A DNA stretch of 55,725 nt, the filler included, from Stramenopiles sp. TOSAG23-2 (taxonomy: Eukaryota), in NCBI GenBank assembly GCA_900128395.1. It is 3 parts of 3 records of this genome, joined end to end, with 100 filler letters (N's around TTAATTAATTAA, not from the genome) between each part and the next. Parts side by side here need not be neighbours in the genome. Positions count along the whole stretch, not along the records: positions 18,736 to 37,325 come from LT649604.1; 2 more parts are not named here. One strand, 5' to 3'. Position 1 is the first letter of the stretch, and each line of letters begins with the position of its first letter. Position numbers and translations under genes: made by a program. This document shows positions 5,186 to 54,560 of this stretch, in pieces. A model generated the notes under the pieces. It was not told where the DNA came from. It was given only the letters and a program-made list of their open reading frames with translations, and did no database searches.

Positions 5186-6737
5186 GTTCTTATCAATTTA
5201 CGTAATTACATTCGTAATAATAGCAATAATTCAAAGTAGCAATGCAAATAATCTGAATTATGTTGCTTTCAGTTTTGATACTTCAGAAATCATTGGAAAC
5301 TTTTGGAGTGCGGGAAGTGCCTTATCGCAATTGAAAAAAGAAAGATTCCAAATATTAACAAAAGCTTTAATAGAAAACAAATATTCTTCTTCTAGCACAA
5401 CAGCCATTATACGCGTTGGTGGGACGGATGCGGATAATGTTTTTTGGAATGTTTCTGCTCCAGGTAAGCCAAAACCAAAATTTACAGGTGACAAATATAC
5501 TCTTAATTCCACAAGATTAGAAGTATTATGCAATTATATTCACTTAACCAATTTGTCTCTTGTTTTAGGATTAAATGGTGGAATTCATCATCGTTTTGAA
5601 TCAAATAAAAGTTGGAACCCTGCGCCAGCAAAGTCATTGTTGGAATATTTAACAAATCCAATTTCAAAATGTTATGGACATTTATATGCTGTTGAATTGA
5701 CAAATGAACCAAATCTTTTTTTAGAAAGTCAAAAGTTTTATTTATCTGGGAAGCAATTGGCCTTGGATTATGCCAAATTAAAAGAATTAATATTGGAATT
5801 AAATTTAACGGAAGTTAAGATAGCTGGTATAGATGTTGCATATCAATTTCCTATTGGATTAGGCCCCGTCGTCCCAACAACAAAATATTTTTTAGAACAT
5901 GGTGGTGGCAAGTATTTAGATATTCTAACATGGCATTGGTATGCATTAGAGTCTTCACGATGTCCATTCAAAGGAAAATTCAGCCCTGCGACACAATCTA
6001 CAGCAATGAGTTTAAATACTTTAAACAAAGGCGATAGATGGAACATAAAATTAAATGAATTGCAAGCAAAATATGCACCAAATTCAGAATTATGGTTAGG
6101 TGAAATGTCATTGGTAAGCTGTGGTGGTGCGGAAAATATTACAAATACATTTTGTGGCAGCTTTTGGTACATAGATGAGTTGTGTAGAAGAGCCTTGCAA
6201 GGAAATAAAGTAATTGTACGACAAACAATTACTGGTTCTCGATATGGAATGATTGATGCAACAACATTGAATCCACTTCCAGATTATTGGACAAGTTTAT
6301 TATATAATACACTTGTAGGAGCTAATGTACATAATGTAACAGCAATAAATGTTATTAGCAAAAATGATAACAACAACAATTTACGTGCATATGCATTTAG
6401 CAATAAAAACGATCCTAAACAATACCAGTATACTATTGTATTAATAAATATTGATCCAATGCTTGAGTTTAAAATTGATGAAATAAATATTGATGGTGTA
6501 GATATTTCAACAAAAATTAATAGTAGAATGGAATATCATATAAGATCAACATCATCCAATACCACTGTATCAAACATTTTAAGCAATAACAAAATCAAAG
6601 TGAATAACGTAACACTTGTAGTTGGAGCTGATAATGTAGTACCATCAATCGTTGATCTAGGTGCGATGAAAAATAATAATTTGAAAGATGAACCTTTGAG
6701 TATTGATCGATTGTCATTTGCATTCATTTTAATGTAA
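5184..6737 (+). CDS. Glycoside hydrolase family 79 (heparanase / beta-glucuronidase-like), secreted
   Basis: In-frame ATG at 5184 is followed by a signal peptide (MFLSIYVITFVIIAIIQSSNA); motifs IRVGGTDAD, VELTNEP, LWLGEMS, RQTITGSRYG, PLPDYW. Confidence 0.88.
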   Translation: MFLSIYVITFVIIAIIQSSNANNLNYVAFSFDTSEIIGNFWSAGSALSQLKKERFQILTKALIENKYSSSSTTAIIRVGGTDADNVFWNVSAPGKPKPKFTGDKYTLNSTRLEVLCNYIHLTNLSLVLGLNGGIHHRFESNKSWNPAPAKSLLEYLTNPISKCYGHLYAVELTNEPNLFLESQKFYLSGKQLALDYAKLKELILELNLTEVKIAGIDVAYQFPIGLGPVVPTTKYFLEHGGGKYLDILTWHWYALESSRCPFKGKFSPATQSTAMSLNTLNKGDRWNIKLNELQAKYAPNSELWLGEMSLVSCGGAENITNTFCGSFWYIDELCRRALQGNKVIVRQTITGSRYGMIDATTLNPLPDYWTSLLYNTLVGANVHNVTAINVISKNDNNNNLRAYAFSNKNDPKQYQYTIVLINIDPMLEFKIDEINIDGVDISTKINSRMEYHIRSTSSNTTVSNILSNNKIKVNNVTLVVGADNVVPSIVDLGAMKNNNLKDEPLSIDRLSFAFILM

Positions 6738-6812
6738 TGTGTGTTGACAATATACCGGTGAAGAAAAGTTCCCTGTGAAGTGAAGAGAGAGAAGTATCCG
6801 CGAGAAAGTATA

Positions 6813-8813
6813 TTAAAAATGGGGTTTTAATTGATTTAAGAGGATGGATTGGTCGTAATTAATTTTATCTTCTATCCCTATTTTCATATCGTCATTAAAC
6901 AATATAATGTTACTTCCTTCTTGAAGATTAATCGTTGAAAAAAATCCACTGATTTTCATTTCTTCCTCAAATAATTTCATTTCTTCCTCAAATTTCTCAT
7001 GTATACTGCCATAATTATTATATTGATATTTTAAGAACGGATGTTTATCATCAGTATTCACATCATCATCTTGAACACTACTTCCAGTACTACGAGATTG
7101 TGGATTCGAAGAACAACTGCTGCGACTATCGTCATCTCCATTACTTTTACTACTCATCTTTCTTATTGTTGGATTATTAATATCATCGATTTTTCTTACT
7201 AATAATTCAGATAAATACAACATTAAACTTTTTGAATTGATTACGGTTGCTACAATTTGCATATGAGTTGGATTGACACCATCAACACTTTTCGAAATCA
7301 TGACTGCAGCACCATATGCACCTGCTCCTGTATTCCAAGCTATGCATACAATTTGAACGACGATTAAAAAACTAATATATAAATTCAATAATGGTGCATT
7401 TGGTTTTAATTTGTTTAAATATAAGTTTAAACCTTGAATTAAATTATTAATACATGGTAATATTTGAATTGCTGAAAGAGAATACAATGCATATGAAGCG
7501 GAGGAGCCAATATCCCCAAGTAATCCATAATATTCTAAAGGTATTTCATAATGAATGTCAAGCAAATTTATCCAATTAATTACCCCTAATACAAACGTAT
7601 ATTGAAAGAATGTTCTAAGAAATCGAAATATAACGATTGCAAAGAAAAAACTTATGATTGGGCTGGAAATGAAATGAATACATTTCAATACAAAAACTGA
7701 AACATGTCGCATATTACAATTTGATCTGTAATAACTAGTAGCATTTACTGTCCAAGCACATCCCGACGATGCTGTAGTATTACTTATTGAGTCTTTTCTT
7801 GAATCTTTAAAAGCAGTTTTTGATAAGGGGAGGAAATTTGTATATAAAATTTCTGTACGTTCAGTATTGTTTGTAGCCAATAATAATCTACCAAACTGTA
7901 AAATGGTGTCACATAATTTAGTCATTCCACCCACACGAGCTGAAGCGTACATGAATAAATTAATAATGCAAAATGATACAGCTAAAACGAAATTGATTTC
8001 TTTCGTATCTGTTACGCATATAACAGAGTTATAACCAAGTAGTGAAAATATGATTCCAGCGCCAAGCGAAAAAATCAAGATAATTCCTTTTTTTAGCACT
8101 AGCAAAACATTTTTGATCTTTGTCGCTGTTGGCACATTCGTTGGTGGCACAAACGACGCATCAAACGAAGATCGTCTATTGCTATTGACTTCCAAACTCT
8201 CGATGTCTCTGATAGCTGTTTCAATATCGTCTTTTTTTTTAATACATGGAAAAATTATTTCCATTGCATTCTGTTGGTACTCATAGTTGAAGAATGAATT
8301 TAAGAATAAACTGAAGGTTCCATATATGATACCCTTAAATGCTTTTTCTTTAATGAACATAGATGACATTAAAAATGTACTTAGTAATTGGGCTGCGATG
8401 AAGATTTCTGAATGCCTATGATCTTTCTTGGTTGTATTAGATTTCGAAGTAAATACAATCCAAAGTAATGCTAAAATGCATATTAGACATATGATCGTGG
8501 GTAATTCTAAATTCCAATGTAAAACTGGTTGAATTGTCGTACGACATTCTTTGGTCACTGGATCTTTGCCTAAATTGAAATCAAAGGTTGCAAACAATGT
8601 CAATACAGCCGTCGGAATGGCCGTCACTATCGCAAGAAGAACCCAAAGAAGCGATTTATCCCCTTTTGCATTACTTTGAAGATCATTATCATGATTTTCT
8701 TCTTCTTTTGCCGAATTTGAAGTTGGCGATTCTGCTAATGGTTCATATGCTTTGGTGGTTGATGTTCCCGATGCAGTTGAATGAAAAGTATTACGTAAGT
8801 TACGTTCACTCAT
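6813..8813 (-). CDS. Multi-pass membrane protein of unknown function
   Basis: 666-aa ATG ORF with many hydrophobic helices and hydrophilic termini; no family motif recognised. Confidence 0.7.
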   Translation of the reverse strand: MSERNLRNTFHSTASGTSTTKAYEPLAESPTSNSAKEEENHDNDLQSNAKGDKSLLWVLLAIVTAIPTAVLTLFATFDFNLGKDPVTKECRTTIQPVLHWNLELPTIICLICILALLWIVFTSKSNTTKKDHRHSEIFIAAQLLSTFLMSSMFIKEKAFKGIIYGTFSLFLNSFFNYEYQQNAMEIIFPCIKKKDDIETAIRDIESLEVNSNRRSSFDASFVPPTNVPTATKIKNVLLVLKKGIILIFSLGAGIIFSLLGYNSVICVTDTKEINFVLAVSFCIINLFMYASARVGGMTKLCDTILQFGRLLLATNNTERTEILYTNFLPLSKTAFKDSRKDSISNTTASSGCAWTVNATSYYRSNCNMRHVSVFVLKCIHFISSPIISFFFAIVIFRFLRTFFQYTFVLGVINWINLLDIHYEIPLEYYGLLGDIGSSASYALYSLSAIQILPCINNLIQGLNLYLNKLKPNAPLLNLYISFLIVVQIVCIAWNTGAGAYGAAVMISKSVDGVNPTHMQIVATVINSKSLMLYLSELLVRKIDDINNPTIRKMSSKSNGDDDSRSSCSSNPQSRSTGSSVQDDDVNTDDKHPFLKYQYNNYGSIHEKFEEEMKLFEEEMKISGFFSTINLQEGSNIILFNDDMKIGIEDKINYDQSILLNQLKPHF

Positions 8814-15496: not shown

Positions 15497-17166
15497 TTAC
15501 AATCCACTTTTAAGTTTCTTCACGTATAGACTTTTGACATCAACAAATTCTTTCAAACCAATTGCACCGCCACCTTCACGGCCAATACCACTTCCTTTTA
15601 CACCACCGAATGGTGCATTTTCGTTTCCGGCTAAATGTTGATTTACCCAACTCATGCCAGATTCAAGCTGTACAGCAACTTCAGCTGCTTTCTCTGCATC
15701 TGGACCCCATACGGAACCACCTAAACCATATTCAGAGTTATTTGCACGTTCCAATGCTTCATCCACATCTTTGTATTTCAAAATTGGCAATGCTAAACCA
15801 AATTGTTCTTCTTTAACAAGACGATCTTCGTCAGTCAAATCAGCAACAATGGTTGGTTTGAAGAAGTAACCACCTTCCTTGCCTGGTACGGTAGCTTTGC
15901 CACCACCAGCAACAATACGACCACCACTTTTTTTAGCATCTTCAACCAATTCGGAAATACGTTCGAATTGCATTTTATTGTTCATTGGACCATATGCAAC
16001 ACCTTCTTCTAAACCATCACCAATAGTTGCTTCACTTGCAACTTTGCCGATTTTTTGAACCATTTCTTCATATTGACTTTCATGGACAAATACACGTTTG
16101 ATTGCAACACAGGTTTGGCCAGAGTTAAACATAGCACTGCCAAAGATTTGTGGTGCAACTTCATCGAGGTTTGTTTCAGGCATAACAATTGCTGCATCGT
16201 TACCTCCTAATTCCTTTCATGGACAAATACACGTTTGATTGCAACACAGGTTTGGCCAGAGTTAAACATAGCATAACCAAAGATTTCTGGTGCAACTTCA
16301 TCAATATTAGTTTCAGGCATAACAATTGCTGCATCGTTACCTCCTAATTCCAATGTCAATTTTTTCAGTGTACCAGCTGCAGTTTGCATGATATTTTTAC
16401 CAGTTGCTGCACTACCGGTAAACGAGATATGAACAATATCTGGATGTTCAACGATCCAACGTCCAAGATCATTACCACCGGAAATAATATTCATAACACC
16501 AGGTGGAAATGCTTGAGCTGCAATTTCACCCATCATAACCGTAGTTAATGGTGTATGTGGAGATGGTTTTAATACAACCGTATTACCAGTGATTACAGCT
16601 GGGAATAATTTATTTGCTGCCATACTCATTGGGAAATTCCATGGTGTGATACCACCAACGACACCACGTGGTACGTAGTGTAATTCAACACGTCCGCGTT
16701 TATCTTCACTAACAACTTCTGGTTTTAACAAGTTTTGTTCAGATAGACCATGGCATTTACGTACAGTGGACATAACTTCACCAGTAGCAAATGCTAATGG
16801 TTTGCCTTGTTCCATTGTCAAAGCTTTTGCAAATTCTGCTTGTCGTTCTGCAAGTAAATCACCGAATTTTCTTAAACATGCAGCACGCTCTTCAAAAGAA
16901 GTTTTCTTCCATGATTTGTATGCCGTTTTTGCGGATTCAATTGCCCGTTCCAAATCAGCCTTGGATGCTTCTGGTACAGTGGTAACTGTTTAGCATAAAA
17001 TATGTGAATGTTTGATAGAGTGTTAGAGATGATATCCATTACGTATGTATATATGTATATATATATATTACTTACATGCTTTACCAGTTGCTGGGTTGAT
17101 AACATCAGCACGTGCATCACCTTCTGCATTTTGTAATTGACCATTAATTAAAATTTTAGTTGCCAT
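15497..17166 (-). CDS. Aldehyde dehydrogenase, copy A (exon 1 17166-17076, intron 17075-16986, exon 2 16985-15497, interrupted by a 137-bp tandem duplication)
   Basis: ITPWNFP, ISFTGS, LELGGND, FNSGQTCVA, EEQFG, PFGGVKGSG. Splicing GTAAGT...CAG restores GKA-F-TTVP as in the paralog; removing one copy of the duplication at 16077-16351 restores the frame. Confidence 0.9.
16077..16351. repeat. 137-bp tandem duplication with identical flanks and divergent centre
   Basis: Copies encode ETNIDEVAPEIFGYAMF and ETNLDEVAPQIFGSAMF; the duplication causes a frameshift. Confidence 0.9.
16986..17075 (-). other. 90-nt spliceosomal intron (phase 1)
   Basis: Minus strand reads GTAAGT...TGCTAAACAG; removal gives an in-frame match to the intronless paralog at 18072. 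Confidence 0.9.
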
Positions 17167-17355
17167 ATTTGGATAAATATATAAAAATACAATGATGTAT
17201 ATAATATAATGTTCTTTTAAAATTGTTTTGTATGTGCATCACCTTCTGCATTTTGTAATTGACCATTAATTAAAATTTTAGTTGCCATATTTGGATAAAT
17301 ATATAAAAATACAATGATGTATATAATATAATGTTCTTTTAAAATTGTTTTGTAT
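17112..17355. repeat. 122-bp tandem duplication covering the ALDH-A start codon and 5' region
   Basis: Direct repeat starting at 17112 and 17234. Confidence 0.9.
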
Positions 17356-17964: not shown

Positions 17965-18156
17965 AGTAATAAAAAATGGCAGCAAACAGATTATTAATTG
18001 GCGGAAAATTAATACTTGCAGAAGGTGGTAGAGTTAGTGATGTTATCAACCCTGCTACAGAGTAATAAAAAATGGCAGCAAACAGATTATTAATTGGCGG
18101 AAAATTAATACTTGCAGAAGGTGGTAGAGTTAGTGATGTTATCAACCCTGCTACAG
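17965..18156. repeat. 96-bp tandem duplication covering the ALDH-B start
   Basis: Direct repeat starting at 17965 and 18061. Confidence 0.9.
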
Positions 18157-18635
18157 GAAAAGCATTCACGACCGTACCAGATGCATCCCGTGGTGACTTG
18201 GAAAAAGCAATTGCAGCAGCAAAGAATGCATACAAAACATGGAAGAAAACTTCGTTTGAAGAACGTGCTGCATGTTTAAAAAAATTTGCTGATACGTTGA
18301 AAGCAAGACAATCTGAGTTTGCAAAAGCATTAACCCTTGAACAAGGCAAACCTTTAGCATTTGCAAACGGTGAAGTTGGTGGTGTTATCAGAGAATGCTA
18401 CAATTTAGCAAATGAAAATTTATTAAAGCCAGAAGTTGTCAGTGAAGACAAACGCGGACGTGTTGAATTACATTATGTACCACGTGGTGTTGTTGGTGCA
18501 ATCACACCATGGAATTTCCCTATTAGTATGGCAGCAAATAAATTATTCCCATCTGTTATTACTGGTAATACGGTTGTCATCAAACCTTCACCACATACAC
18601 CATTAACTACGGTTATGATGGGTGAAATTGCAGCT
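18072..18635 (+). CDS. Aldehyde dehydrogenase, copy B (3' truncated by the contig end)
   Basis: Highly similar to copy A (VINPATGKAFTTVP, EQGKPLAFA, ITPWNFP); no intron. Confidence 0.9.
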
Positions 18636-18735
18636 NNNNNNNNNNNNNNNNNNNNNNNNNNNNNNNNNNNNNNNNNNNNTTAATTAATTAANNNNNNNNN
18701 NNNNNNNNNNNNNNNNNNNNNNNNNNNNNNNNNNN
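18636..18735. other. Artificial contig spacer (N run + TTAATTAATTAA + N run)
   Basis: Six-frame stop linker at 18680-18691 between N runs. Confidence 0.95.
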
Positions 18736-19053
18736 ATCGTGTATAAATTCATGTATTTTTGTCTTTGATTTTACATCATATATAGTTGTTTTCTTTGCAC
18801 CATCGCCAGTTGCCAATAATCTACCATCATTTAAAAATGATACACTATATACAAAACTATCGTGTATAAATTCATGTATTTTTGTCTTTGATTTTACATC
18901 ATATATAGTTGTTTTCTTTGCACGATCGCCAGTTGCCAATAATCTACCATCATTTGAAAATGATACACTATATACAAAACTATCGTGTATAAATTCATGT
19001 ATTTTTGTCTTTGATTTTACATCATATATAGTTGTTTTCTTTGCATGTTTCAC
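18736..19053 (-). CDS. WD40-repeat protein fragment with near-identical 123-bp (41-aa) repeats; partial or pseudogene
   Basis: About 2.5 copies of KKTTIYDVKSKTKIHEFIHDSFVYSVSFxNDGRLLATGDxA; no in-frame ATG; runs into the gap. Confidence 0.7.
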
Positions 19054-19445: not shown

Positions 19446-19981
19446 TCCCGCTGGCCAGCCTGCCAGCCTGGGAAGGAAAAGAAAACTACAGTATTATAAA
19501 CAACAAACAATAACAAAAACGACTAGAGCTAACCTCTGGTTACAGTATTAATAAGGAATAACCACACACAGGCCACAGGCCACAGGCTATAATATAAATA
19601 ACGACGACGACTAAAAAAATTCGAAAACTGCTGTTGGTAGTCCAGTAGTCCAGCCTGGCCAGGTACTGTAATAGCCAAGTATGAGAAGAAAAAAAAATAA
19701 TAATAAATAAAAAAAAAAGAACAAGGGTATGTCATAAAGGTATACGTTATTAGAATAATCTAGATATATCTATCTGTCGATAATAGCGAGTCAAATGGTT
19801 TTGTAAGCTTATATAATTGAAAAATAGGAAAAAAATTCATTATTATATACGCACGCGCACCATTGACCCTTTTTTTTTGTCTTTGCGTGGGATATTGTTT
19901 GGATCATATATATACTTACCGGATAAACGAGTGCGTAGAAACTTTTGGAAGTTTGAAGAAGTTCACTGGACTTATTCTAAA

Positions 19982-21880
19982 ATGTTATTAAAGGTGTTTT
20001 TCACAATAATACCATTCATTTTAATTACATATTGCAGCATATTATCACAAGCGAAAATAATACATGGTACCATAAATACAGCCGACTCGTTTTATTATAT
20101 AGGATCTTTTGTTTTCAATCAAAATACAACTAATGGCGCCGGCAATTTTGGTGTTTCTATTACACATCACAAAGACATTGACTATGGCATGGCAGTATAT
20201 TATTACCAAAAATATATGACAGATATACGTGATTCAAAGGCAAATTGCCTTCAAAGAATCCATTTAAGTTGGGGGAAGACATCGATGAATTATTTCACAA
20301 CAAGTGAATTTAAACACAGGCCAGTAGACGAGCAGGTGTTAAAAGACAACCCAGAATACAAGGATATGAACATGGTAACTTCATATATTTCGCTCGATTT
20401 TAACATAAATCACCCACGTTGGTTTTATGTTGCATTAACAAATTGTGCATATGATAAAAATTATTATAAAAATTTGCATCGAATAAAGTACATGGGGAAC
20501 AAAAAAGACGAAGAGTATTTTAGAAGTAACACAAGCTCAATTTATAAAAACTTAGGAAACATAACTTTAAAACCGAATCAAGGTCCGATTTACGCCACGT
20601 TTAACTTCACATTCACAAATGGAAATGCCATGCGGAGTAGACACTTTTCATTTAATGAATTTGATGACTTATTAATTGCAATTACTTTTTTTATCATTTA
20701 TTTAATATTATTTGCTACTTATTTATGTATGAAAAAAAAGGCACCAAATAGATCAACAAGCGGTAATGGATCAAGCGGTGGTGCGAACACGATAAATGAT
20801 AGTTATGGATATGGACTAGTAAGTCAGCATAAAACGGTGACCCTTCTCGGAATATCTGTATTATTACAGTTAATTGGCAATTTTATAGATGTAATACGTT
20901 TAAATGACTATAGCGATACAGGTATACAAGACGAGACCTTTCGTTATTTCGAAGCTGTCAGCTTAGGGTTTCATCATATGTCAGATGTTGTATTTGTATT
21001 AGATATACTGTTAATTGCAAAAGGATGGACGGTAATACGACGTAAGATAAGTGCAAATGGTCGAGTTAAATTAGCCATAGCGATGACAACGTATACTATT
21101 TGTGGCATCTTTGCGATAAATATTTATCAAAATTTAAAAGATGAAGACCGTATCGATCAAAGTTCACTATATTCCTCTGATGCTGGTTATGTCATAGTTA
21201 TCCTTCGTTGTTTAATCTTTTGTTGGTATATGCGTTCAGCATACACAACATTTACTAAGCCATCCTTTAAACGGAAAAAGAGATTTTATTTTTACTTTTT
21301 TATTGCATCTATCTGTTACCTGATAATTGTACCATTGGTATTTGTAATAACAGATAGTTCGCAATTATATAATCGTACTAAACATAGTAATTGGGCAAGT
21401 AATATTTTAATCACATTAGGTCATATGTCATTTTTATATTTATTTTGGCCATCTAATTATAATAGTTATTTTCCATTTGCATTTGAAACAAAAGAGCAAG
21501 AGATGGCACGTATGGATGCATTTAAAAGACAGTCAGAGACTTTGTTCAATAGACAAGCTGGAGCTACTATTAGTAATGGCAATAATCCAGAAAATAATAT
21601 AAATGGTGTTGAAAATGGTTTTGGACCTCAATATAATACTACTACTACTAATAATAATAATTCTACGAAAAATATTCGAAAAAGAAGTAGTCACCGAGTG
21701 TCACGCGCATCTATTAGTGGTGGTAGCCAAAATGTATCGCCACGTGCAAATATAACAAGTTTAAGTCAAAGTTTAAAAAGCAAAATCAAAGTAATATATG
21801 ATTATAGTGAAGATTTGGATGAAGCAATTTCATTATTTTTTGATGAGGAGGAAGATATAAATATGCATCAGAAAGAATGA
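19982..21880 (+). CDS. TMEM145: TMEM145/GPR180-family seven-transmembrane protein
   Basis: Signal peptide after the ATG at 19982; luminal PRWFYVALTNC and FTNG...HFS; LLIAKGWTVIRRKIS..G.VKL, YSSDAGY, PS.YN..FPF match TMEM145 as I recall it. Confidence 0.8.
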   Translation: MLLKVFFTIIPFILITYCSILSQAKIIHGTINTADSFYYIGSFVFNQNTTNGAGNFGVSITHHKDIDYGMAVYYYQKYMTDIRDSKANCLQRIHLSWGKTSMNYFTTSEFKHRPVDEQVLKDNPEYKDMNMVTSYISLDFNINHPRWFYVALTNCAYDKNYYKNLHRIKYMGNKKDEEYFRSNTSSIYKNLGNITLKPNQGPIYATFNFTFTNGNAMRSRHFSFNEFDDLLIAITFFIIYLILFATYLCMKKKAPNRSTSGNGSSGGANTINDSYGYGLVSQHKTVTLLGISVLLQLIGNFIDVIRLNDYSDTGIQDETFRYFEAVSLGFHHMSDVVFVLDILLIAKGWTVIRRKISANGRVKLAIAMTTYTICGIFAINIYQNLKDEDRIDQSSLYSSDAGYVIVILRCLIFCWYMRSAYTTFTKPSFKRKKRFYFYFFIASICYLIIVPLVFVITDSSQLYNRTKHSNWASNILITLGHMSFLYLFWPSNYNSYFPFAFETKEQEMARMDAFKRQSETLFNRQAGATISNGNNPENNINGVENGFGPQYNTTTTNNNNSTKNIRKRSSHRVSRASISGGSQNVSPRANITSLSQSLKSKIKVIYDYSEDLDEAISLFFDEEEDINMHQKE

Positions 21881-22310
21881 TTTTGAACAGGGGGTTATAT
21901 TTTGCTTCTATCAAAAATTTTGAAATTTTAAAAACAACAAAAGGCTGAGCAAGCCTGGCAAGCCAATTCTGTGGCACCTCTATGCACGTGTTAGTTTTAT
22001 AATACAGAGTATTTTCTTTAATAATATTAATACTAAATTGATATCATACGTAACATTAATAATATCCTTTATTTTTTTATTTATTAAAATATCATTTTAG
22101 TATGCCAGTATGCTGGTATGCATAATTTTTCGATATTAAAATTAATCTCCCTGCTATATACTATCAGGTGTTATATAATATACTTGATAGTAATATAAAT
22201 ATTATAGCTCTAGTTATAATATTTTATTATATTAAACACTATCAACTATCATATAAACGTTAAATACTATACCAAGCTAGGTCCTGTGGCTAGCCAGCTG
22301 GCCAGCTATA

Positions 22311-22544
22311 CAGTAACTTGCAAAAAAGATCATCCACGAAAACCGGCGGTGCCCCCCCCACACGCACGCACACGCACACGCATTTTTACATTTTTTTACT
22401 TTTTTCATTAAAATAACATAAAAATCAATAAAATATATATAATATATATAGATACAATAGATATATAGATACATAGATACATATATTTATATTTATATCA
22501 CATCGTATTTAGAAAAACGTAGTTGGATGGAACGAAGGGATATC
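22311..22544 (+). repeat. Left terminal inverted repeat (234 bp)
   Basis: Reverse complement of 24203-24440, differing only by small indels in the poly-C and AT tracts. Confidence 0.95.
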
Positions 22545-23163
22545 TATTAATATATACTAAAGGCATAGTTTGTTTTGTACAAGTATTCCTGCAAGTATAT
22601 ATTTGTTCTTTAGTAGATATGATTTATATATTTATAACATTTTGAAAGTCACTGAGTGATATGCTTTTTTGAAATTATCATTTAGTACAAAAATAAATTT
22701 TTGTACTATCAAAGTAAAACTATATTTAGAATATCTATTTGTCGTTCTTTGGTTTTGATGCATCGTTAGAAAGAGTTCCAAAAGATAATGTTTTAATTAA
22801 TTCGATGCGTAGAAGCGTGTTTAAAAGCTGATATATTTTGTTTTTCTATTTTAACAGCTTATTTTTTAATTTATAGAAGTATTATTTTATATTTTATGAT
22901 ATGATAAAAAAAATATGAAAAATTTCCCAAAAGAAGACTTATCCCCTAATGGCCAATACTGTTTTACTCTACGAAAAATATATTTACAATTTCGTAATAA
23001 TACATGTAGATTATTATAATTTTGGAATAATATATACTCATATCCTGCACATATGAAAAATGATGAAGATACGTTTTGTAAGTTCGTACCGTGTACGAAT
23101 ATAATTTTTACAATTTGGATCTAAAAATATTTCATACTTCGTATTTTTTATCATTAATTATTT

Positions 23164-24084
23164 TTACACTCTCGCTTTGTTTGTTGGTTTATCTTCAACG
23201 TCCTTCGATGCAGTTCCTGTTACGCGATATATATTTCCAGTAGCAAATATCATTAATTCCATTTTCTTATCTTTAAACATTGTATATACAGCAGTGATAC
23301 TGAATAATAAAATTTGTAGAAAAATGGATCGTTGTGTTGAACGTTGCATAATTGTGTACTTTTCACCTTGTATGGTATAATTGAATAAAACTACTCCTTT
23401 ATTCCAATTTCCAAACGTATTATTATATATATTGTAAATATTTAACAACGTTGATAAGCTTCCAACAAAAATCAAAAATATACGACTTTTCAGTTTTACT
23501 GCGTCCATCAATACAAAAGCATTTGTTGCGAGCATTAATATTAAACCAAAAAGTGGTGATAATGGTGTCCTTGGTCGTGCAATCTCAATAGTCCAATTTA
23601 AAATAGTCAATATAATAATGATTACAACATTCGTTTCTTTTAACAATCGTTGTATACTCACTAATGATACATTTTTATAATACCATATAACAGAACATAT
23701 TATCGTAATGATAGCAAATGTGGCTGTTGCAATTCGTAATCCAATATTTGTTCCACCAGAAAGAATGTGACATAAAACTGCAATCAAACCACACAATCCC
23801 CCCCCACGCTGTCCCCATTTTACACGCCAATCCAGCCAATCATCCATTACAACATCCTTCCCAAGCAATTTCAAACTTTTACGTCGAACCGTGTTGTTGT
23901 GGTAGATTGCTGCCCAAGAGTTTCGACTCGCTTTACGATCTCTCGTTTCAGGTTCTAACTCAACCTCTAACGTAGATCTACTGGTTTCTTTTATCTCATT
24001 CCGCAATTGTTTATTCTCTTCCTTTAGTAATTTGACTTCATTGATAAGTACCTCGTACGCAGCTCTGGTAGGTGGAAATGACAT
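23164..24084 (-). CDS. 306-aa multi-pass membrane protein with short N-terminal coiled coil (cargo of the TIR element)
   Basis: Uninterrupted ORF from the ATG at 24084; coiled coil LINEVKLLKEENKQLRNEI followed by about six hydrophobic helices; no DDE/D motif. Confidence 0.8.
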   Translation of the reverse strand: MSFPPTRAAYEVLINEVKLLKEENKQLRNEIKETSRSTLEVELEPETRDRKASRNSWAAIYHNNTVRRKSLKLLGKDVVMDDWLDWRVKWGQRGGGLCGLIAVLCHILSGGTNIGLRIATATFAIITIICSVIWYYKNVSLVSIQRLLKETNVVIIIILTILNWTIEIARPRTPLSPLFGLILMLATNAFVLMDAVKLKSRIFLIFVGSLSTLLNIYNIYNNTFGNWNKGVVLFNYTIQGEKYTIMQRSTQRSIFLQILLFSITAVYTMFKDKKMELMIFATGNIYRVTGTASKDVEDKPTNKARV

Positions 24085-24202
24085 TTTTATTTGCTTTGAA
24101 TTGTATGAGATAATTTGTAGTTGATCTGTTTGTCTATCGATAATGATTATATGTATCGTTTTATATAAATACTTCACTATTTTACTATATCAGGTGTCTA
24201 AT

Positions 24203-24440
24203 GATATCCCTTCGTTCCATCCAACTACGTTTTTCTAAATACGATGTGATATAAATATAAATATATGTATCTATGTATCTATATATCTATGTATCTATAT
24301 ATATATTTTATATATATTTTATTGATTTTTATGTTATTTTAATGAAAAAAGTAAAAAAATGTAAAAATGCGTGTGCGTGTGCGTGCGTGTGGGGGGGGGC
24401 ACCGCCGGTTTTCGTGGATGATCTTTTTTGCAAGTTACTG
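24203..24440 (-). repeat. Right terminal inverted repeat (238 bp)
   Basis: Reverse complement of 22311-22544. Confidence 0.95.
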
Positions 24441-24697
24441 TAGAAACGTAGTAGAAATTATATGGCCGTATTATTGCAACTATTTCTGTTATTAATATAA
24501 TATAGACATAGCATTGGCGTATTAACGTTGCGTATTAACGTTTGATTAACACACACATAGAACTACGTTATACGCAAAATACACATGTACGAAATTAGCG
24601 TAACGTGCTTATTACATCTCTTAGATTTTTTACATTCTTCTCAAAAGAAGAAAGTAGAAAAGAAATTTACACATCACAACCATCATCACAACAATTA

Positions 24698-24909
24698 CAT
24701 TTTAATATTTGCTCGGATTGATATTGTACAATACAGAAAGAAATGTTAGCGCCAAACTCATCGACCTCCTCTTTAATGAATGGATATGCAACATTTAATA
24801 AGCCATTTTAATATTTGCTCGGATTGATATTGTACAATACAGAAAGAAATGTTAGCGCCAAACTCATCGACCTCCTCTTTAATGAATGGATATGCAACAT
24901 TTAATAAGC
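24698..24909. repeat. 106-bp tandem duplication spanning a start codon
   Basis: Direct repeat starting at 24698 and 24804. Confidence 0.9.
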
Positions 24910-37325: not shown

Positions 37326-37425
37326 NNNNNNNNNNNNNNNNNNNNNNNNNNNNNNNNNNNNNNNNNNNNTTAATTAATTAANNNNNNNNNNNNNNNNNNN
37401 NNNNNNNNNNNNNNNNNNNNNNNNN
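37326..37425. other. Artificial contig spacer
   Basis: N run + TTAATTAATTAA (37370-37381) + N run. Confidence 0.95.
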
Positions 37426-54221: not shown

Positions 54222-54560
54222 CGCATAATTTATTGTGTTTTAATTTACTCATGATAATTCCTTACTCTTCAAAAGAATACAATAACTGAAATAATCTATC
54301 TCACACTAGTGTGTTGATATTCTCATAATCGAGAATACCAATGAAGGTAAATAGATAGTATCAACTACTCATAATAGCTGATGGAAAACGTACATCATAG
54401 TCACACAAGTGTGTTGATATTCTCATAATCGAAAATACCAATGAAGGTAAATAGATAGTATCAACTACTCATAATAGCTGATGGAAAATGTACATCATAG
54501 GAAGGCGGAGAATAAATTGTACCAGGGTACAATTTATTATACGACTCACCAAATGCACAT
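54222..54560 (+). repeat. Dispersed intergenic repeat, copy 2, containing a 100-bp internal tandem duplication (54301-54500)
   Basis: Colinear with 48341-48603. Confidence 0.85.

Follow-up and report, generated by a model that had tools for sequence, protein, structure and literature searches.

The DNA analysed here, a stretch of 55,725 nucleotides (nt) joined from three records of the uncultured marine protist Stramenopiles sp. TOSAG23-2, is referred to below as the window. Between two of its genes lies an element that, without its flanking TA dinucleotides, covers positions 22311-24440 (2130 nt) and in which an intact gene for a membrane protein of 306 amino acids (aa), designated P0001, stands between two long inverted repeats. 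It was analysed as a candidate Pack-TIR, i.e. a transposon with terminal inverted repeats (TIRs) that holds host-derived sequence between its ends. The features of the locus are, in order of position:

22309-22310, no strand: TA at the left end, read from the sequence and found at 4 of 4 ends; putatively one half of a TA target-site duplication.
22311-22544, plus strand: left terminal inverted repeat, 234 nt, starting CAGTAACTTG; no substitutions relative to the right arm, and the outer 72 nt, including the TA, identical to the contigs L001 and L002 described below.
22545-23163, minus strand: non-coding internal segment of 619 nt, 3' of the cargo gene, with no open reading frame (ORF) of at least 60 aa.
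23164-24084, minus strand: cargo gene, translated as the intact 306-aa multi-pass membrane protein P0001, stop codon included.
24085-24202, minus strand: segment of 118 nt from the cargo start codon to the right arm, a putative 5' leader or promoter region.
24203-24440, minus strand: right terminal inverted repeat, 238 nt, ending CAAGTTACTG; 97.8% identical to L002 over 134 nt and 87.2% identical to L001 over 164 nt.
24441-24442, no strand: TA at the right end, as given by the window assembly; putatively the matching half of that duplication.

The two arms were obtained both by a repeat search of the window and by blastn; the segment 22309-24442 is enclosed by inverted repeats of 234 and 238 nt that differ by no substitutions and by four small insertions or deletions. 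The repeat search returned the inverted pairs 22309-22359/24392-24442 (51 nt, 100% identity), 22352-22454/24296-24398 (103 nt, 98%) and 22457-22544/24203-24290 (88 nt, 100%), which blastn merged into one alignment of 246 columns with 239 identities, no mismatches and four gap openings over seven columns. The gaps fall in a C-run (8 versus 9), in a TA-rich microsatellite (4 nt and 1 nt) and at the inner edge (1 nt). Both ends read TA followed by CAGTAACTTG, and the order at the junctions is ...GCCAGCTA-TA-CAGTAACTTG...CAAGTTACTG-TA-GAAACG... The 30-nt terminus occurred exactly twice in the window, once on each strand, and matched in none of 100 dinucleotide shuffles; self-comparison of the whole 55.7-kb window showed no further copy of the element. 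Tc1 ends begin with CAGT, and repeats of at least 200 nt are found in some Tc1-like families.

Besides the cargo frame (23164-24177), the ORFs of at least 60 aa that overlap the element comprise one of 65 aa in the left arm and two, of 67 and 85 aa, that run antisense within the cargo gene. The segment 22545-23163 contains none; the GC content of 22550-23163 is 23%, and no Rfam match at E ≤ 0.1 was obtained for 21800-24900. Inspection of the arms, by eye only, revealed no convincing layout of inner and outer direct repeats as binding sites (IR/DR). With 2130 nt and an intact 306-aa ORF, the element is unlike miniature inverted-repeat transposable elements (MITEs) and foldback elements, which measure only a few hundred bp and lack coding capacity.

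The occurrence of the terminus at other sites was investigated by one exact-motif scan of metagenome contigs with the terminal motif, which yielded two other contigs, L001 and L002, at unrelated sites. The flanks of these contigs match neither the window nor each other, and the repeat alone is shared: identity to the window repeat was 87-88% over 164-165 nt for L001, and 97-98% for L002 over 133-134 nt, at which point the L002 contig stops. When the four ends (two from the window, one each from L001 and L002) were aligned, the flanks differed and all sequences were identical from TA-CAGT inward, unbroken for 72 nt. The limit at which the arms of the window stop matching is thus also the point at which homology begins in independent copies, which is the behaviour of a mobile-element terminus, and the same end is dispersed in three different flanks. 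TA precedes CAGT at the left and right ends of the window element, in L001 and in L002. With TA making up 0.094 of the dinucleotides of the window and 0.143 of those in the flanking spacers, the chance of finding TA at all four ends is about 8e-5 to 4e-4 if the ends are independent; as a duplication the TA pair is putative, no empty site having been recovered.

In the same four-end alignment, the inner 80-110 nt of the arms are absent from L001. The window element and L002 are therefore a subfamily distinct from the L001 copy, which, to judge by its sequence, is a member of a sister subfamily. The host genes on L001 and L002 have a GC content at third codon positions (GC3) of 0.18-0.29, as seen in the window. 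Viral contigs gave no match to the terminal motif and contained no relative of the transposase described below; likewise, the 65-aa ORF of the left arm, used as a query against the protein collection for copies of the repeat, yielded no candidate. A further contig with the motif among the genome contigs, L003, from a bacterial metagenome-assembled genome, was rejected as a chance match (GC 54%, nothing else like the window, L001, L002 or either protein). A suspected remnant of the repeat upstream of the L001 end was also dismissed, as its local alignment score of 35 was below the maximum of 45 reached by 200 shuffles. At 5493-5512 of L001, the flank next to the end carries the element's first 8 nt in reverse complement, with C-TA in between, so that a short palindrome spans the junction.

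The L001 copy encodes a transposase. Its end lies at 5503, and about 315 nt further in an open frame (5812-6873) begins that runs off the contig. In Pfam, this frame scored 63.9 bits with DDE_3 (cut-off 28.6; E = 2e-17), and the domain is preceded by a homeodomain-like helix-turn-helix region; with Pfam HTH_32 the partner scored 30.5 bits, under the cut-off of 33.7. A full-length protein of 388 aa, P0143, is 100% identical over the L001 part and has 16 member sequences on 10 contigs, the longest of 2120 nt. A 93% variant, P0144, is labelled 'transposase' in one source, and seven more distant relatives were present in the protein collection. P0143 passes the NCBIfam model for IS630 transposases (112.3 bits against a cut-off of 100). 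Its triad D175, D269 and E304, with 93 and 34 residues between (D-93-D-34-E), is invariant in 9 of 9 relatives. A profile of nine relatives had the Mos1 mariner transposase as its best solved structure (E = 7e-4), followed by SETMAR and Sleeping Beauty. The AlphaFold model of P0143, with a predicted local distance difference test (pLDDT) score of 72.9, had Mos1 as its nearest fold in Foldseek (E = 1.7e-7), with SETMAR and the catalytic domain of Sleeping Beauty also listed.

The DDE/D transposase of the superfamily is provided by this relative on L001 and not by the window element itself. A search of the window with the transposase by tblastn gave no remnant (best E 3.4), and none of the 17 window ORFs scanned belonged to a transposase family. 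No similarity was found between 22545-23163 and the internal sequence of L001, nor between 24085-24202 and the stretch of L001 that separates the repeat from the transposase ORF. The transposase gene has a GC3 of 0.459 (L001 5819-6873), compared with 0.277 for the cargo gene, 0.15-0.29 for the host ORFs of the window and 0.18-0.29 for L001 and L002; this composition hints at a recent arrival of the transposase gene from another genome.

The cargo frame has its first ATG at 24084 on the minus strand, which gives the 306 aa of P0001. Four strong hydrophobic segments at residues 114-220 (Kyte-Doolittle) and six long helices in the AlphaFold model (82-109, 114-138, 151-169, 176-197, 201-224 and 250-289; pLDDT 64, predicted TM-score (pTM) 0.38) support P0001 as a multi-pass membrane protein. 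Homologs of P0001 numbered 223 at E ≤ 0.001 and came from marine assemblies and protist gene sets; the best was 78% identical, and many have about 300-325 aa and were aligned over 98-100% of the query. Of the 122 alignment columns with conservation of at least 80%, P0001 keeps 113; 46 relatives keep a median of 114. Relative to contigs of four sequencing runs that are at least 90% alike, 19 differences in the cargo gene were listed, 12 synonymous and 7 not, a rough count in which strains and paralogs are mixed. P0001 is thus encoded by a complete gene of host type, without signs of decay, and not by a fragment. The sequence between the ends is host-derived, as in Pack-TIRs: it belongs to a cellular family, its GC3 falls inside the 0.15-0.29 range of eight other window ORFs, and it is unlike both the transposase and the internal DNA of L001. 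P0001 gave no Pfam family above cut-off and no NCBIfam family, and no Foldseek match in the PDB at E ≤ 0.001; a WTAP-like Pfam match on its N-terminal coiled coil was weak (16.4 bits, below the cut-off of 35). The best ESM Atlas score, 0.76, is a lead only.

The original prediction for this locus had described a 2130-bp segment between near-perfect inverted repeats of 234 and 238 bp that stop matching at TA on either side, with Tc1/mariner ends, no transposase within, and an intact 306-aa multi-pass membrane protein as the sole ORF. The arms were confirmed by the repeat search and by blastn, without a single substitution, and their limits by the same TA-CAGT start in L001 and L002. The assignment of the ends agrees with their dispersal at these two sites and with the DD34E partner that shares the terminus, and the lack of a transposase with the tblastn and ORF scans given above; the membrane protein holds as the only substantial ORF. 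The autonomous partner that the prediction had suggested looking for, with the same ends and a DD34D/E transposase, was found on L001, where DDE_3, the IS630 model and the DD34E spacing identify it.

The window is gene-dense and eukaryotic, with 33% GC, and its ORFs match the UCH, GH5, GH79, RuvBL2/TIP49, RING, aldehyde dehydrogenase, GPR180/TMEM145-like and leucine-rich repeat (LRR) families. The element lies in a spacer of about 3 kb, 428 nt from a GPR180/TMEM145-like gene (stop at 21880) and 406 nt from a coiled-coil gene with an ORF of 924 aa (ATG at 24849). The left neighbour (19817-21880) encodes a GPR180/TMEM145-like seven-transmembrane protein of 687 aa (Pfam PF10192, E = 3e-27); two unrelated membrane-protein genes, this one and the cargo, therefore adjoin at the locus. 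Elsewhere in the window, aldehyde dehydrogenase genes stand head to head at 15497-16953 (minus strand) and 18072-18683 (plus strand). The stretches 16516-16983 and 18635-18168 are inverted copies with 82% identity over 473 nt, a diverged gene duplication unrelated to the transposon repeat.

Parts of the stretch were present in 20 of the 22 sequencing runs listed, nearly all of them marine or seawater metagenomes, and the small run X1, probably the source, contained 74% of the sampled words. Three X1 contigs matched the locus with no differences: record 5 (21827-22338) leads from the left flank into the left arm; record 7 (22515-23254) joins the 3' segment to the left arm's inner edge on one side and to the cargo end on the other; and record 8 (23386-24232) runs from the cargo gene through the 5' segment into the right arm, of which it includes the innermost 30 nt. 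To the right of 24450, X1 gave no contig, and this uncovered part was counted neither for nor against the structure. Record 20 of X2, a seawater metagenome from another study, matched 22514-22687 with five differences and also spans the left inner edge. Records 7 and 8 of X1 and record 20 of X2 thus tie the cargo to the inner edge of the repeat on both sides. Contigs of the left flank end at 22274 (X2) and 22193 (X3). On the right flank, record 21 of X2 and record 30 of X3 fit the window only from 24459 on and extend 315 and 62 letters further left.

Pieces of the cargo gene were also observed in other surroundings. The match of one X2 contig to the window ends at 23165, exactly at the stop codon of the cargo gene, beyond which at least 255 letters of the contig are unlike. 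Record 14 of X15, from a library of poly-A RNA, resembles 147 nt at the 5' end of the coding sequence (96% alike), has a different leader and diverges at 24079, within 5 nt of the start codon, where 61 unlike letters follow. These breaks indicate that near-identical pieces exist in other sequence contexts. For the X2 and X15 contigs, three origins are conceivable: the shared backbone with different contents, the gene from which the cargo was copied, or ordinary paralogs; as parental gene, record 14 of X15 is a candidate only. Contigs of RNA libraries were not counted as evidence that the gene is transcribed.

Perfect or near-perfect duplications, tandem or nearly so and 96-187 nt long, were seen at 17112-17355, 17965-18156, 24698-24909, 47676-47815/48050-48189, 54301-54500 and 18736-19045, with 100% identity for the 122-, 96-, 106- and 140-nt pairs. 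Their size, on the scale of sequencing reads, suggests artefacts of assembly or gap closing. One of them, at 24698-24909, is 256 nt away from the element and overlaps the start of the neighbouring 924-aa ORF. Four N-runs of 44 nt form two pairs (18636-18679 and 18692-18735; 37326-37369 and 37382-37425) with 12 nt between the runs of a pair; one pair breaks an aldehyde dehydrogenase copy and the other the end of a 1619-aa ORF.

We consider it probable that 22311-24440 is a non-autonomous element of the IS630/Tc1/mariner superfamily with a whole-gene cargo (a Pack-TIR or transduplicate). In such an element, the complete host-type gene for the 306-aa membrane protein would occupy the place usually taken by the transposase. 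Transposases of the superfamily bind at the termini; as the termini of the window element are identical to those of a transposase-encoding copy, mobilisation in trans is plausible, and the partner transposase might bind the shared termini and could cut and paste the window element. Template switching or gap repair may have brought the cargo into an element already in place, where it replaced the transposase region. This capture would be a recent event, since the arms carry no substitutions, a state that argues for recent origin or for repair in which one arm was copied from the other. The original prediction had spoken of a young, trans-mobilised vehicle. Its youth fits the unsubstituted arms and its mobilisation in trans is a plausible deduction from the termini, while movement since capture received no support.

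Several observations weigh against this interpretation. A second copy of the cargo-bearing unit was seen neither in the window nor, in narrow searches, in the protein collection and the contigs of the motif scan, and multicopy spread of the packaged unit was accordingly not observed there. No parental gene came to light either: the collection of 5.8 billion proteins lacks the exact sequence, its nearest member being 78% identical. No joint that skips the element was listed in four runs, and because no empty site was seen, the TA duplication and the insertion are inferred. L001 shares about 120-160 nt of the 234-238-nt arms, and its other end lies off the contig; composition and repeat identity are the only grounds on which L001 and L002, both metagenome contigs, are putatively assigned to the species of the window. 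The right outer junction (24442/24443) was bridged by no listed contig and is given by the window assembly alone, as is 23255-23385 within the cargo gene, while at 23317, 23382 and 23383 the X1 contigs carry only other letters, presumably from a paralog. Finally, the perfect duplications of 96-140 nt at 17112/17234, 17965/18061, 24698/24804 and 47676/48050 look like assembly artefacts.

The last of these points would fit an assembly chimera, in which a paralogous membrane-protein gene, or two gene halves each beside one repeat copy, had been threaded through a dispersed repeat; the source genome seems patchy, amplified or co-assembled. A dispersed repeat is a natural place for misjoins, and the perfect 96-140-nt duplications, the paired 44-N runs, the unbridged position 24442/24443 and the X1 contigs with other letters at 23317, 23382 and 23383 all fit such an origin. 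We nevertheless regard it as quite improbable, as records 5, 7 and 8 of X1 join flank, arms, segments and cargo with no differences, record 20 of X2 spans the left inner edge independently, and the uninterrupted ORF aligns end to end with its relatives; moreover, a misjoin at the right flank would still leave the unit of repeat, cargo and repeat standing. A resident host gene might, alternatively, have been bracketed by two truncated elements or solo ends in opposite orientation, a coincidental composite. That the cargo family is a normal cellular one, and that neither a parental gene nor a second copy of the unit was found, would agree with this. Each arm is, however, a single outward-facing end and not a two-ended element. 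Slippage indels aside, the arms agree over all 234 nt, and this holds for the inner 80-110 nt missing from L001 as well; truncated insertions that arose independently would be unlikely to stop at the same inner base, and this explanation is highly improbable.

A different question is whether the whole unit transposes as an actively spreading vehicle, with related units carrying other intact genes, so that membrane-protein genes are duplicated and shuffled. Intact termini identical to those of the transposase-encoding copy and arms without substitutions would suit such a vehicle, as would L002, which has the same repeat subfamily at another site on a contig that ends in the repeat, and the contigs that break off at the cargo stop codon (X2, 23165) and near the start codon (X15, 24079). 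Against it, neither a second copy of the unit nor another cargo was seen in any search, other cargo between these ends being absent from the protein collection and from the viral, metagenome and genome contigs searched, and most single-copy Pack-TIRs arise without transposition according to the part of Tan et al. (2021; PMC8277862) drawn on here; we think such spread unlikely. The earlier statement that the element amplifies membrane-protein genes was consequently left without support, with one cargo-bearing copy seen and the nearest protein 78% identical, and its further suggestion of copies with different cargo was matched by none in the searches made. We think it likewise unlikely that, in uncultured marine protists, a Tc1-like family of DD34E type has exchanged its transposase ORF time and again for intact genes of the host and distributed these. 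If it did, it would be a vehicle of whole-gene duplication that feeds the expansion of a family of membrane proteins of about 300 aa.

The element with its whole-gene cargo, as preferred here, can be compared with known systems. Gene capture by cut-and-paste transposons is known mainly for small fragments, in plants and lately in animals. In the autonomous Tc1-type DD34E and IS630 elements, a likeness is provided by L001/P0143, with the N-terminal helix-turn-helix, DDE_3, D-93-D-34-E, TA flanks and a length of about 2 kb, while the window element differs in having no transposase. The solved transposases of mariner, SETMAR and Sleeping Beauty are distant relatives of the partner only (E 7e-4 at best).

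Animal Pack-TIRs are described in the part of Tan et al. (2021; PMC8277862) used here as 370 cases in 100 genomes, 115 of them TcMariner, with a median captured piece of 224 bp and exon sequence in 13.4%. The same part gives gap filling without transposition as the default origin of a single-copy Pack-TIR, and gap repair or template switching at a resident element as the printed models of capture. Like the TcMariner Pack-TIRs of animals in that account, the window element has host-derived sequence inside repeats of Tc1/mariner type, is non-autonomous and, as far as seen, single-copy; unlike them, it carries as cargo a complete gene of 921 nt with 619 and 118 nt of non-coding sequence, in a marine protist host. 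A printed precedent for a whole gene in the same source is Ssk-FB4 of Drosophila melanogaster, a near-complete protein-coding gene inside the long inverted repeats of a non-autonomous element. Ssk-FB4 is multicopy, with duplications of 9-10 bp and repeats of about 700 bp, and FB4 is, according to the authors, more likely a Mutator-like element (MULE) than TcMariner, its transposase being unknown (PMC8277862, as far as that part goes). The window element differs from it in its TA flanks, its DD34E partner and the lack of a second copy in the searches made. For the Pack-Mariner elements (Stowaway-type) of rice and maize, the examples in the part of Gisby & Catoni (2022; PMC8903248) drawn on have captured gene fragments of 58-280 bp and are themselves only a few hundred bp long. 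They resemble the window element in their Tc1/mariner-superfamily ends, TA duplications, captured genic DNA and mostly low copy number, whereas the examples given there contain only fragments and the window element contains an intact gene.

A narrow literature search, which did not extend to supplementary tables of captured pieces, turned up no protist with a Tc1/mariner Pack-TIR that contains a whole gene. The view that such a system had not been described in such protists agrees with this search as far as protists are concerned; TcMariner Pack-TIRs as such are already in print for animals and plants, on the evidence of the parts of the two papers cited (PMC8277862, PMC8903248). What is gained here is a complete, conserved and apparently undecayed gene in a shell of Tc1/mariner type from an uncultured marine protist, together with the identification of a matching transposase. 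To our knowledge, the genome dynamics of the host group are almost unknown and no genetic tools are available for it; the identical termini and the 388-aa transposase are a defined, testable transposon system for this lineage. If the unit moves, whole genes could readily be duplicated through it and perhaps also passed from cell to cell. Among Pack-TIRs, the window element is unusual in its intact gene, its identified DD34E partner and its protist host.

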